DNA from: Eledone cirrhosa
Lineage: Eukaryota
NCBI GenBank assembly: GCA_964016885.1
Contig: OZ024741.1
Coordinates: 309,008,001 to 309,072,000 of the forward strand
Direction of reading: 5' to 3'
DNA length: 64,000 nt
The notes beneath the pieces were generated by a model. The model ran no database searches, had not been told where the DNA came from, and saw only the letters and a list, made by a program, of their open reading frames with translations. A program made the translations under genes and the position numbers. This document shows, in pieces, positions 17,161 through 48,241 of the stretch; position 1 is the first letter of the stretch, and every line of letters starts with the position of its first letter.

Positions 17161-17873
17161 TGTGTGTATATGTGCATACATATGTACACACATACACACA
17201 CACACACACATATATATACATATATGGGGAGGGTATTTCTATCTCTATATATATATAGATGTGTATATATATGTGTACACACATATATATATATATATCT
17301 TTAGATGTGTATGTGTATGTCTATATGTATGTATGTAATATAATGTAACTTTCACACACTACTTTCTTGTACCTGCTTTCTTGTTCTCTCCTTATCAAAA
17401 CTTTCCTGACGAAGGACTTCTGTCCTCCACTCTCTCAAGCGTGAACCTCATATCACTTTGTATTTTTGCATTCCTGAGTTTGTTTTGTTTCACACACACA
17501 CACACATATATATATATTCAAAATTATAAAAAAAGTCAAATATATGAAATTATTATTTATTCTTTCATTTTCTACGCACGTTTCAATAATATCACATTCA
17601 TTTACAGAACAACTGGAAATTATCGATTAACATTTATGTACATCATATGTGTTACCTACTAACCGTATAACGATGTTTCACTATACAGAAATGGCCATAT
17701 TCGAGATAAATTCACCACCAAGACAAATTCTATGAAAATCTTAAAACTGAACATTAAAGAAAATGAATTTTAAACAATAATTTACAATGCTCTGTGTACT
17801 AAGAAAAATAAGTTATTCAATTTTACTTTTCGAACTAGATTAGGAAAAAACGTTAATTATCTCTCTCTATATA

Positions 17874-17931
<58 letters not shown>

Positions 17932-17943
17932 TTCTCTCTCTCT

Positions 17944-18870
17944 CACAGCCCTCTGGCAGGCGGACCCGGCGATCAGTGGAGACTCCACTTCGTCATTCTA
18001 TAGAGGGTTGGTCCGCAGCAAGTGCGACGACGCGCTCGGTGAAACTCTAGGCGTGGAGGAAGATGAACTGGCCAGTCTGTTCGGTAGGACCTTCCGCCCG
18101 GGACCGATGGACAACTTCCAAAAGTCCCTGGCCTGGCAGTGCTACCGAGGAGCTCTACCAGTTCGAGACAAGCTCTACAGACATGGGCGCCCGGGCAGGG
18201 ACCCTGCAAAAAAGATCTGTCCGAGGTGCGTGCGAGACGAAGAAACCGTCGCGCACGCATTCATACACTGCCCGGGCGTCACTGACCTGTGGGGATATGT
18301 AGAACGACTATTGTCGCGGGTGGGACCAATCCAGTTGACCACCGAGTCCATTGTCATGATCAAACCGCCACCCTCCTTCAAAAACGAAGGAGAGGCGGTT
18401 TTCCTTTGTGTGATAGCTATGGCGAAAGAGGTTGTATGGTGGACAAGGTTGAAAGGGCTGAGGTCAGACACCTTTCTCTCCGGCCAACAACTGATTCTTT
18501 TTTTCAAATACCACTTTGGAAGAAGAATCAGGATGGAGAGAGAGGTGCTGTACCGCAGCAAGTTTTATGAAAGGTGGGTGAAAGTGGCGAGAATGGCCCG
18601 AGTGAATGGGCCTTCTCTCTATATCAGCCTGTAGATTGAGGAAAAGGAGGAGGAGAGGAAAGGAGTACAAGCTCTTCGTACTCCTGGAGATGAGGGTTGC
18701 ACATTTTTTCGGGGGTATGTGTTACCCATATAAACTGTCTCCCTCTATTGGGGAAAATCGACTAACTTTTAAATTCCATCTGTGATAACATTTTACACGT
18801 TTTTATTGTATGTAAACTTCCCCCTTTGTATTTGTCCCCTTCTTTTGTGCCCCTGTGGCTAATAAAGAAA
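17944..18870 (+). mobile_element. 5'-truncated Tx1/L1-type LINE, 3' end
   Basis: ORF 18008-18634 has the zf-RVT-like motif W..YRGALPVRDKL..CPRC...ETVAHAFIHC. 3'UTR ends in AATAAA. Inserted between (TCTA)n/(TC)n tracts. Confidence 0.9.
18008..18634 (+). pseudogene. LINE ORF2 C-terminal zinc-binding (zf-RVT-like) fragment
   Basis: 208-aa non-repetitive ORF with a CCHC motif, lacks RT and endonuclease domains. Confidence 0.8.
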
Positions 18871-19682: not shown

Positions 19683-19749
<67 letters not shown>

Positions 19750-19752
<3 letters not shown>

Positions 19753-20008
19753 TATGTATACGTACATACATATATGTATACAGACGTACAGTAGTATGTA
19801 TATATATACATACATGCACACATATATATATGTACGTATGGATTCACTGAACATTTATTATAATGCTCGGTGTGTTTGTAAACAAACATCCCGTATTAAG
19901 CCGTAGTGTCTAGCAACCATCGTTGCTCGTTTGTTCAACACTGACAAAGGAACGCTGTACCTGTTTCAAGCCTATTAGCTATCGTCAGCAACGTATACCT
20001 TCCTGCCA
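19750..20008 (-). mobile_element. Family C element, truncated copy
   Basis: Reverse complement of ~23072-23330, includes the HHR. Confidence 0.8.
19952..19994 (-). ncRNA. Type I hammerhead ribozyme, family C
   Basis: Reverse complement: acgttg-CTGACGA-t-agct aata ggct-t-GAAA-cagg-TA-cagcgt. Confidence 0.8.
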
Positions 20009-20034
20009 CACACACACACACATATATATATATA

Positions 20035-20185
20035 AATGGCTTCTACAGGACTAGAACAGTTTCATTCCTATGAAATCATCAGGAAGGCCGGGTGACATAG
20101 TAAGTCAATATCAAATATTGATGTTAACACTCAACTGATGTATTTGGGACCTTATTTACTGTGATTACCCCCGATTTAACTCGGG

Positions 20186-20190
<5 letters not shown>
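20035..20190. mobile_element. Family B element with most of the right arm missing
   Basis: Minus-strand HHR arm followed by a diverged plus-strand family B tail (acactcaactgatgtatttggg...ctcgggat). Confidence 0.7.
20038..20087 (-). ncRNA. Type I hammerhead ribozyme, family B
   Basis: Reverse complement: cttc-CTGATGA-t-ttc atag gaa-t-GAAA-ctg ttctagtc ctg-TA-gaag. One mismatch in stem III. Confidence 0.75.
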
Positions 20191-21809: not shown

Positions 21810-22185
21810 TGTGATACATATTTCAATGACGACAATGGCCTCACTTCTCGGTGTACCCAGTGCCGTGACATCATCAGACAGTTTCTTACATAATAAGGTT
21901 ATGTTCCCGAGGTAATCCAAATTGAATCGCCTGCGCAAACTGGTGGGGGTGAATTGGGGCTCACAAGGGAACGGACGAAGGATTCAAGAAAACCTGCTTC
22001 GTCCGTTCCCTTGTCGATTCAATTTGGATTACATCGGGAACATAACCTTATTATGTAAGAAGCTGTCTGATGATGTCACGGAACTGGGTATACCGAAGAG
22101 TGTGGTCACTGTCGTCATTGAAATATGTATCACAGCATTATCATTAAATGACTTTAACATCTGTAACTACGTTGCATTTTCTTAT

Positions 22186-22310: not shown

Positions 22311-22615
22311 TTGAAAATTGCGTGGAATCCTTGGTAGAGTTAGGTGTATTTAAAAAAAGGTAAAGAATGACTTCACTTGTAGTTCTAAACAATTTAATTT
22401 AATTTTATAATATTATGATTTTACAATTTAGTTTCGTAGTTCTAGTAAGTTCTTTGTAGATCTCCCCACCGAAGTTAACAAAGAACTTACTAGATCTACA
22501 AAACCAAATTGTAAAATCATATTATAAGATTAAATTAAATTGTTTAGAACTACAAGTGAAGTTATTCTTTTCATTTTTTTAAATATGACTAACTATACAA
22601 GGATTTCACACATTT

Positions 22616-22777: not shown

Positions 22778-22906
<129 letters not shown>

Positions 22907-22936
22907 TGGGAAATATATATATATATATATATATAT

Positions 22937-23385
22937 GAGTGGGAAATGAAATTTCATTTCATTTTTTCCGTTTATCGTTTTCGGTGCACCCGGCCGATTA
23001 ACCCACTCAATATGTAAATTGGGCTACTCAGCCGTTAATATGCATAAGGTAAGTATATACGTTCAACAATCTGGCAGGGAGGTATCTGTTGCTGACGATA
23101 GCTAATAAGCTTGAAACTAGTACAGCGTTCCTTTGTCAGTGTTGAACAAACGAGCAACGATGGTTGCTAGACACTACGGCTTAATACGGGATTTTTGTTT
23201 ACAAACACACCGAGCATTATAATAAATGTTCTGTGAATCCATACGTACATATATATATGTGTGCATGTATGTATATATACATACTACTGTACGTCTGTAT
23301 ACATATATGTATGTACGTGTACATACTTATATTTAAGTAACAGCCGTACTAAGAGTGGGAAATGAAATTTCGTTTCAGTTTTTCC

Positions 23386-23390
<5 letters not shown>
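22937..23390 (+). mobile_element. Retrozyme/PLE-pLTR-like element, family C: 416-bp monomer plus 38-bp terminal direct repeat
   Basis: gagtgggaaatgaaatttc...ttccgttta at both 22937-22974 and 23353-23390. Internal HHR. Flanked by (TA)n on both sides. Confidence 0.8.
23087..23127 (+). ncRNA. Type I hammerhead ribozyme, family C (retrozyme-like monomer)
   Basis: tgttg-CTGACGA(23092-98)-t-agct aata agct-t-GAAA(23113-16)-ctag-TA-cagcg. Stem I tgttg/cagcg, stem II 4 bp, minimal stem III with palindromic CTAG, GUA cleavage triplet. Stem I extends via gttcaaca/tgttgaac. Confidence 0.85.
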
Positions 23391-23442
<52 letters not shown>

Positions 23443-23681: not shown

Positions 23682-23801
23682 GGAGGTGAGTTTTGTAGTA
23701 CAATAAAGCAATGCAGATATCGGATAAGAAGCACTCTACAGTTTGTAGGACTGGAGTATACATAATATATAAGATCAAAAGATGGTTAAAAGAGTTCCAT
23801 G

Positions 23802-23872
23802 TATTTTATTATGCGCATTTCAAAAACAAATATCATCATGCAATAACATTTTTGTTTTCATCAGATAAAATA
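23802..23872 (-). ncRNA. Type I hammerhead ribozyme, family F (mirror copy)
   Basis: Inverted copy of 24549-24617 with 8-bp stem I tattttat/ataaaata and intact core. Confidence 0.82.
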
Positions 23873-24548
23873 GGAAGACATGATATGAAGGTTATAAAAC
23901 ACTTGTGAATAGTGCAGTTTTAAATCAACATATGAAAAGTAGTTTTAGATTGATGTGTGATATTGGGAAAAAAATTTTGAGGGGGTGGGGGGAGGATGAA
24001 AAAGAGGAGGAGATGAGAGTAAAAAGTGGAGGGGGAGGAGTATAATGAGGAAGGATGAGATAGGAGGAGAGATGGGTGATAGAGAGAGAGAGATAGCTTT
24101 TATAACTGAGAAAAATATATTGTTTTACATAGAGAGGTTGAAAAACCGTTGGAAGATAATATATAAATTAAAAGAATTTAAAAATTAACGAAGAGAAAAA
24201 TAACTTAACATTATTTTTCTCTTCGTTAATTTTCAAATTCTTTTAATTTATATATTATCTTCCAACGGTTTTTCAACCTCTCTATGTAAAACAATATATT
24301 TTTCTCAGTTATAAAAGCTATCTCTCTCTCTCTATCACCCATCTCTCCTCCTATCTCATCCTTCCTCATTATACTCCTCCCCTTCCACTTTTTACTCTCA
24401 TCTCCTCCTCTTTTTCATCCTTTCCAACCTCCCGCCCCCTCAAATTTTTTTCCCCAATATCACACATCAATCTAAAACTACTTTTCATATGTTGATTTAA
24501 AACTGCACTATTCACAAGTGTTTTTTAACCTTCATATCATGTCTTCCG

Positions 24549-24617
24549 ATTTTATCTGATGAAAACACAAATGTTATTGCATGATGATATTTGTTTTTGA
24601 AATGCGCATAATAAAAT
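24549..24617 (+). ncRNA. Type I hammerhead ribozyme, family F (long stem II)
   Basis: attttat-CTGATGA(24556-62)-~15-bp stem II-GAAA(24599-602)-T GCGC A-TA-ataaaat. 7-bp stem I, palindromic GCGC tetraloop, AUA triplet. Confidence 0.85.
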
Positions 24618-24670
24618 ACATGGAACTCTTTTAACCATCTTTTGATCTTATATATATATATATATATATA

Positions 24671-41518: not shown

Positions 41519-41527
41519 TATACATGT

Positions 41528-41716
41528 TTATCCCGGGTTGAATCAGGGGTGACCACAGTAAGTAAGTTACTCAATACATAGCAGAGTATAGATATTTAAT
41601 ATAGACGTGGCTTCTACAGGACTAGAACTGTTTCATTCGGGAGAAATCATCAGGAAGCCTGATTTCTACCGAATGAAACAGTTCTAGTCCTGTAGATGCT
41701 ATTTCTATATTAAATA
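41528..41716 (-). mobile_element. Family B asymmetric fold-back HHR element
   Basis: Arms ~41595-41650 / 41660-41716 plus a ~65-nt unpaired tail at 41528-41594, in a TA-rich tract. Confidence 0.8.
41609..41659 (-). ncRNA. Type I hammerhead ribozyme, family B
   Basis: Reverse complement: ggcttc-CTGATGA-t-ttc tccc gaa-t-GAAA-cag ttctagtc ctg-TA-gaagcc. 6-bp stem I, 3-bp stem II, 4-bp stem III, GUA triplet. Confidence 0.88.
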
Positions 41717-47232: not shown

Positions 47233-47974
47233 GTAAGTATGTATGTATGTATATGTACATACATATATGTATACAGACGTACAGTAGTATGTATATATAT
47301 ATACATACATGCACACACATATATATGCACGTATCGGTTTACCGATAATAAATGTTCGTTAAACCGATACGTGCATATATATATATATGTGTGCATGTAT
47401 GTATATATATACATACTACTGTACGTCTGTATACATATATGTATGTACGTATACATACATACTTACATTTAAGTAAGTGCCGTACTAAGAGTGAGAAATT
47501 AAATTTCGTTTCATTCTATTCAATTTATCGTTTTCGGTGTGCCCGGCCGACTGAACTCACTCGATATGCAAATTAGGCTGCTCAGCCGTTAATATGCATA
47601 AGGAAAGTATATACTTTCAGACGTTCAACCATTTGGCAGGAAGGTATACGATGCTGACGATAGATAATAAGCTTGAAACTAGTACATCGTTCCTGTGTCA
47701 GTGTTGAACAAAAAGGTGACGTGGTTGCCTAAACACTGTACGGCGTAATTCAGGCTGTTTGTTTGTTTATTAACAAACAAACCGAGCATTATAATAAATG
47801 TTCGGTAAACCGATACGTGCATATATATATGTGTGCATGTATGTATATATATACATACTACTGTACGTCTGTATACATATATGTATGTACGTATACATAC
47901 ATACATACTTACATTTAAGTAAGTGCCGTACTAAGAGTGAGAAATGAAATTTCGTTTCATTCTATTCCATTTAT
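47231..47974 (+). mobile_element. Family C element: 5' inverted arm plus ~1.4 tandem 446-bp units
   Basis: 47345-47528 is repeated at 47791-47974. 47231-47345 is the reverse complement of ~47356-47468. HHR inside, (TA)n flanks. Confidence 0.8.
47648..47690 (+). ncRNA. Type I hammerhead ribozyme, family C
   Basis: acgatg-CTGACGA-tagataataagctt-GAAA-ctag-TA-catcgt. Perfect 6-bp stem I, one mismatch in stem II. Confidence 0.8.
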
Positions 47975-48002
47975 ATATATATATATATATAAAATATAGA
48001 AG

Positions 48003-48053
48003 AGCATCTACATGACTAGAACTGTTTCATTCGTGAGGAATCATCAGGAAGCT
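48003..48053 (-). ncRNA. Type I hammerhead ribozyme, family B (left arm of palindrome)
   Basis: Reverse complement: agcttc-CTGATGA-ttcctcacgaat-GAAA-cagttctagtcatg-TA-gatgct. Core intact, a few stem mismatches. Confidence 0.7.
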
Positions 48054-48099
48054 TCCCGATGATTTCTCACGAATGAAACAGTTCTAGTCCTGTAGAAGC
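48051..48099 (+). ncRNA. Type I hammerhead ribozyme, family B (right arm, U4C core variant)
   Basis: gcttc-CCGATGA-t-ttc tcac gaa-t-GAAA-cag ttctagtc ctg-TA-gaagc. Confidence 0.7.
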
Positions 48100-48173
48100 C
48101 CTTCTATATTAAAACATTTACACTCTGCTATGTATTGAGTACCTTACTTACTCCGACTCAACCCGGAATAACT

Positions 48174-48241
<68 letters not shown>

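Follow-up and report, generated by a model that had tools for sequence, protein, structure and literature searches.

By its sequence, the insert at 22937–23390 of the window (the whole 64,000-nt stretch of Eledone cirrhosa DNA that was analyzed) is a member of the published class of non-LTR retrozymes and bears the insertion marks of Penelope-like elements (PLEs), as class and marks are set out in the accessible text of the reports on them (PMC7229834; bioRxiv 10.64898/2026.07.22.740005; PMC4209133). The family has a type I hammerhead ribozyme and no protein, and the overlap between its ends is variable and not an LTR; its insertions include 5′-truncated and partly tandem copies, some with an inverted 5′ copy, and the target is a microsatellite. 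It is very probably a retrozyme mobilized by PLEs. The insert itself is unremarkable, a slightly decayed copy of a small repeat that is very abundant. The features located are collected in Table 1.

Table 1. Features of the insert, its relatives in the window and the largest array of the unit.
Feature	Position	Strand	Remarks
Whole insertion	22937..23390	+	1.09 units of the ~420-bp hammerhead repeat family; 5′-truncated; stops at the "long" one of the two fixed 3′ ends
(TA)n target, 5′ flank	22916..22936	.	
Terminal redundancy	22937..22974	+	Upstream unit's final 38 nt; starts at the 5′ truncation point of the window copy
Type I hammerhead with extended helix I	23061..23147	+	Motif, predicted structure, covariation; predicted cut after 23122
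Long TA-rich palindromic hairpin	23240..23321 (approximate limits)	+	Length-variable part of the unit
Small hairpin	23324..23339	+	Loop holds the second ("short") fixed 3′ end, ~23332; window copy reads through
PLE-type "tail"	23333..23390	+	~55–60 nt between the two fixed ends; includes a hairpin immediately preceding the long end
(TA)n target, 3′ flank	23391..23438	.	
Second window copy, older subfamily (83%)	47345..47973	+	~1.4 units; long end; short inverted arm upstream
Third window copy (95%)	19743..20008	-	<1 unit; stops at the short end
~55-kb satellite of the unit	G000:C1:96983275-97039030 (L108, L107, L061-L065)		Retains single-insertion anatomy: inverted arm, both ends

The coordinates and 416-bp period given in the preliminary description were correct on rechecking, and the insert is 454 bp long. 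Its termini, described there as the same 38 bp, are near-identical rather than identical, with 36 of 38 positions matching between 22937–22974 and 23353–23390. As had also been reported, (TA)n was found on either side, the longest ATG frame (36 codons on the plus strand, 35 on the minus strand, 53 when read circularly) leaves no meaningful ORF, and the genomic ends lie off the ribozyme cut site, 185 and 268 nt from it. Outside the TA hairpin, the window copy shows eight differences from the family majority, three of them within helix I. The unit folds strongly compared with shuffled sequences (z −6.7), in part because of the TA-rich palindrome. Nine bases like the start of the insert also occur at 22905–22915, 22 bp upstream with (TA)n between, and may represent microhomology at the 5′ junction or an abortive first copy.

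A single hammerhead in the middle of the insert, cutting after 23122, had been proposed from the sequence. The core CUGACGA (from 23092), GAAA (23113–23116) and the GUA triplet ending at 23122 are placed accordingly. Proximal helix I pairs 23087–23091 with 23123–23127. Helix II (23100–23103/23108–23111) has four pairs and is closed by a U·U mismatch, while helix III consists of one pair and a palindromic CUAG loop. Searching the whole window against Rfam at the gathering threshold gave no match; the grounds for calling a ribozyme are accordingly motif, structure and covariation. Several subfamilies supplied 21 ribozyme regions, in which 94% of cells were paired, compared with 28–40% when slid. 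One helix I pair switches among G–U (7), U–G (7), A–U (2) and C–G (1) in 19 distinct rows. In 19 of the 21 rows the search pattern had preset the core, helix II and helix III, whose invariance is therefore circular and no evidence. An intact core was seen in 21/29 and 80/126 units of the two big arrays.

The predicted pairing of proximal helix I is 0.0 in the window copy, compared with 0.92–0.94 for the outer three pairs in a young copy; substitutions at 23079, 23086 and 23087 are the reason that the helix is predicted not to form. The only ribozyme of the window copy is predicted to be misfolded. Having just one, the copy would in any case be unable to release a monomer, and it is likely a dead end. 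Helix III of a dimer is predicted at −6.8 kcal/mol.

Genome-wide searches were carried out on the 3.0-Gb animal assembly. A 32-letter hammerhead pattern gave 24,780 exact matches and a tail-region pattern 30,951, with none for either reversed control; these counts take in related subfamilies at 72–90%, with units up to ~510 bp. Searching with the insert yielded 1,224 candidates, and scoring of the best 40 showed at least 41 other near-full-length places at 95–97% identity. One copy (L005:1957-2010), at an internal chromosome position, has a 5′ junction adjoining several TTAGGG-type telomeric repeats.

Mapping of 149 arms in 92 loci placed 127 of the 3′ ends at two fixed sites: 78 at the long site used by the window copy and 49 at the short site ~55–60 nt earlier, with 22 elsewhere. 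The sample comprised 51 loci chosen by similarity, a choice that biases it toward the long end and that set aside the window copy, duplicates, the arrays and three compound loci (L027, L035, L054); 32 loci from a positional hammerhead list (13 of these for several close matches); and nine of 30 tail-pattern loci at sites new to the sample. Among 52 head-to-head inverted pairs, 39 joined a long to a short end, none joined two of a kind (long + long or short + short), and 13 had an unclassified end. Independent contigs showed loose ends at the same two sites followed by (AT)n, the short-site ends falling at 23332–23335. Both start sites share 3–5 nt of TA microhomology with the target. Tandem multimers and a fixed 3′ end among genomic copies, suggested earlier as a check, were thus both found; the preliminary description overlooked that there are two fixed ends, accompanied by head-to-head inversions, which is the PLE "tail" signature.

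By contrast with the 3′ ends, the 5′ ends of the sampled copies are scattered over the unit. At unit positions 153 and 258 they seemed to pile up, but this was partly an alignment artefact arising from substitutions in the window copy. In 27 other best full-length loci, the end overlap ranged from 41 bp up to several whole units. The 38-bp redundancy, earlier taken as the retrozyme hallmark, does not hold as one: given the variable overlap and scattered 5′ ends, 38 bp is merely where the window copy stopped. It was rejected both as a conserved feature, since its length differs among copies, and as the PLE tail itself, which is the 55–60 nt between the two ends.

Fixed ends and long + short inverted pairs are PLE signatures, and the young RT (reverse transcriptase) + GIY-YIG PLEs of this genome likewise have two ends. 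As, in addition, none of the sampled copies runs on into an ORF, the family is a non-LTR retrozyme whose mobility is likely owed to a PLE. The genome holds 10,597 GIY-YIG candidates; the best 150 were scored and 39 fetched, and 19 long frames sorted into seven PLE families. Both RT and GIY-YIG were present in six of 10 frames tested. One young family (L201-L220), with RT + GIY-YIG frames of ~900 codons that are 94–100% identical over 89 scored copies, has two ends ~42 nt apart before (TA)n (long in seven of 20, short in 11, unresolved in two) and is the best candidate helper. Its copies often lie in head-to-head pairs. In place of the single 3′ end with an A-rich or simple tail that marks SINE- and LINE-type target-primed elements, the family has two internal ends, with read-through into further units.

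The unit might instead be the pseudo-LTR of an autonomous PLE outside the sample, its copies being truncated or solo ends. Autonomous PLEs in the genome do have similar hammerheads in their 3′ regions, one with the same U·U-closed helix II and palindromic helix III; 24 of 57 Xenopus retrozyme families match known elements, mostly PLE ends, in the accessible text of that study (bioRxiv 10.64898/2026.07.22.740005); and the GIY-YIG sample extends to the best 150 candidates. Nevertheless, the 416-bp unit was not found as a 3′ region in the 39 + 20 PLE loci sampled, and none of the seven families sampled shares sequence with it. A PLE ORF match lay nearby in five of 145 fetched element stretches (overlaps included), and in none was there an in-register upstream continuation into an RT + GIY-YIG ORF, the observation that the preliminary description had named as counting against its own reading. 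Sampled copies longer than one unit always ran on into another unit, and no dominant foreign continuation appeared among the matches listed from 10,440 contigs. A GIY-YIG fragment upstream of the L030 copy is decayed and joined through unrelated sequence; it was rejected. A pseudo-LTR origin is therefore judged improbable, and the family is treated below as a non-LTR retrozyme with a PLE helper.

Several other elements were observed alongside. In one PLE family (L089, L090, L093, L096, L097), which we take to be Neptune-like, the 3′ region ~1.1–1.4 kb after the ORF contains CCAAT and TATA-like motifs; it also has a hammerhead-like fold whose core is altered and whose helix III is palindromic. 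Compared with these five, L099 ends ~65 nt earlier, suggesting two ends for that family as well. A second, unrelated short hammerhead family lies in (TA)n at window positions 20030–20190 (minus strand), 41520–41710 and 47990–48175. It often forms a small head-to-head pair, is present in four PLE-region loci (L088, L093, L097, L104), and is probably another abundant non-autonomous PLE derivative. Near the insert, long inverted pairs at 23765–24655, 23437–23554/25133–25250, 21810–22134 and 22325–22607, with arms of 92–228 nt that are 86–99% complementary, are probably other head-to-head insertions in (TA)n. An open stretch of 286 codons at 17774–18634 presumably resembles the 3′ end of a non-LTR retrotransposon ORF.

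Two large arrays of the unit were found, of 29 units and of ~132 units over ~55 kb. Their higher-order periods (6 units; 7, 16, 28, 35 and 36 units) are a mark of unequal crossover and could be read as a satellite spread by DNA recombination alone, the ribozyme being incidental. The dispersed copies, with their fixed 3′ ends, ragged 5′ ends and inversions, argue against this, and even the 55-kb and 12-kb arrays still have an inverted 5′ arm together with both kinds of end. Such a satellite is very improbable as the whole explanation and is largely refuted by end polarity. From their insertion ends and higher-order periods, the arrays are likely single retrozyme insertions enlarged by unequal crossover.

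The nature of the template was assessed from the cut site and from variants shared within insertions. The cut site was crossed 178 times, and a start within 3 nt of it was seen in just three of the 149 arms. Such seamless crossing means that the template was ligated or uncut at that point. More than one turn of template was needed, in the form of either a circle or a tandem multimer. The earlier proposal of just over one turn of either is upheld as regards length; the window copy by itself fits both. Nine variants absent from other loci (n = 53) were common to all overlapping copies in seven loci, and seven of the nine span both arms, in five loci. A variant was shared within a locus 340 of 1,129 times, compared with 5% between loci, in a count that is weighted toward multi-unit loci and includes subfamily variants. 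The four units of L115 are 0–1 base apart, yet 3–6 from the same-subfamily insertions compared; the three units of L148 have no differences. One of the nine private shared variants is A>G, and RNA-editing marks, for which the insert's subfamily gave no support, were rejected.

Identical units were rejected as sole proof of a circle, as L147 and L151, where unit differences are restricted to the first 57 and 176 nt, fit unequal crossover at the DNA level; the nearest relatives of L147 are 97% identical. Unit identity alone is also a weak argument because young insertions are often mutually identical across the ribozyme block. Overall differences within insertions (3.1% tandem, 3.4% inverted) are close to those between insertions (3.8%). 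Arms could also share variants by gene conversion.

With the same family and the same helper, the template might also have been an uncut linear transcript of a tandem source, circles being a by-product. In vitro, the anole PLE protein used uncut RNA and inserted ribozyme-dead mutants equally well, cleavage not being required, according to the accessible text of the report (PMC11167929); a linear tandem transcript would therefore give the same DNA. Tandem sources are plentiful (the arrays of 29 and ~132 units and many short tandems), the single pair of helix III predicts weak cleavage, and eight of nine Xenopus dimers showed no cleavage in vitro in the part of that study available (bioRxiv 10.64898/2026.07.22.740005). 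Nevertheless, neighbouring units in the two big arrays differ by 7–8%, whereas young insertions have near-identical units with private variants on both arms, and the source would need to be already a homogeneous multimer. We regard an uncut template as possible but rather unlikely. A circle is favoured by the seamless crossing of the cut site and by the private variants that both arms share, and a PLE-inserted, 5′-truncated, protein-less hammerhead repeat copied mainly from a circle appears, on balance, the somewhat better supported description.

The full course of events can be proposed tentatively: the PLE reverse transcriptase would roll round a ligated ribozyme circle of ~420 nt from both nicked strands of (TA)n, with one start site for each, a scheme that we consider plausible but would not yet call probable. 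Transcription of tandem copies would come first; by pairing of their palindromic helices III, two adjacent ribozymes would then excise a monomer, to be ligated into a circle, as retrozymes of coral, mussel and axolotl lead one to suppose. A PLE protein, the putative enzyme, would make a nick in (TA)n and begin reverse transcription at either of two internal RNA sites ~55–60 nt apart, corresponding to the two observed ends. Reverse transcription would cross the ribozyme junction seamlessly for a variable length, as seen at the DNA level and amounting to 454 nt here. Priming on both strands would give the observed head-to-head pairs with one end of each kind, and some insertions would become satellites by DNA-level duplication, which would leave the higher-order periods observed. 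If true, rolling-circle copying by a PLE would be the genomic footprint of the circle-to-genome step that has been proposed for animal retrozymes and not shown, and an origin of new satellites up to 55 kb.

A single copy is of little weight; the family links animal retrozymes to PLE enzymes through insertion anatomy instead of co-occurrence, and shows single insertions growing into satellites. Its 420-nt unit, in which two start sites have been mapped, could also serve as substrate in the in vitro PLE assay already established, where circular and linear templates would be directly testable. A literature search confined to main texts, few of them from subscription journals, turned up no animal retrozyme described as having both tail ends and inverted arms.

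Compared with metazoan non-LTR retrozymes, as far as the accessible text describes them, the family likewise has a short unit that is non-coding and holds one type I hammerhead, co-occurring PLEs, monomers, dimers and long arrays, GC below 50% and strong self-pairing. The one-pair helix III with a palindromic tetraloop matches axolotl Amex1, and the U·U at the base of helix II matches Amex2. At 416–510 bp, the unit is at the upper end of the 150–450 bp first described for retrozymes (PMC7229834). RNA circles have been shown for the retrozymes of coral, mussel and axolotl (PMC7229834; bioRxiv 10.64898/2026.07.22.740005), and are a candidate product of the present family, whose PLE tail ends and head-to-head arms set it apart from those retrozymes as described.

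In the available portions of the PLE literature, insertions are described as 5′-truncated and partly tandem, with an inverted 5′ copy, a tail confined to one end and microsatellite targets (PMC8557442; PMC3846280), the tail being the stretch between two internal reverse-transcription start sites; given AT-rich DNA in vitro, purified PLE protein nicks and extends each of the two strands (PMC11167929). The family shares these traits with EN+ PLEs as so described (PMC8557442; PMC3846280; PMC4209133; PMC11167929), together with microsatellite or AT-rich targets and a hammerhead within the repeat. Unlike them, it has no ORF and the whole unit is the repeat; its tail is ~55–60 nt compared with the 30–40 reported, and its start sites have 3–5 nt of TA microhomology, whereas the anole element starts without homology. 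Non-autonomous Chlamys PLEs (such as MRC1) are likewise protein-less derivatives with multicopy head-to-tail insertions. From what the accessible text says, such derivatives generally resemble the 3′ end of their autonomous partner, whereas the unit resembles no partner among the seven families here, and their clade lacks canonical hammerheads, whereas the present family has one (PMC8557442).
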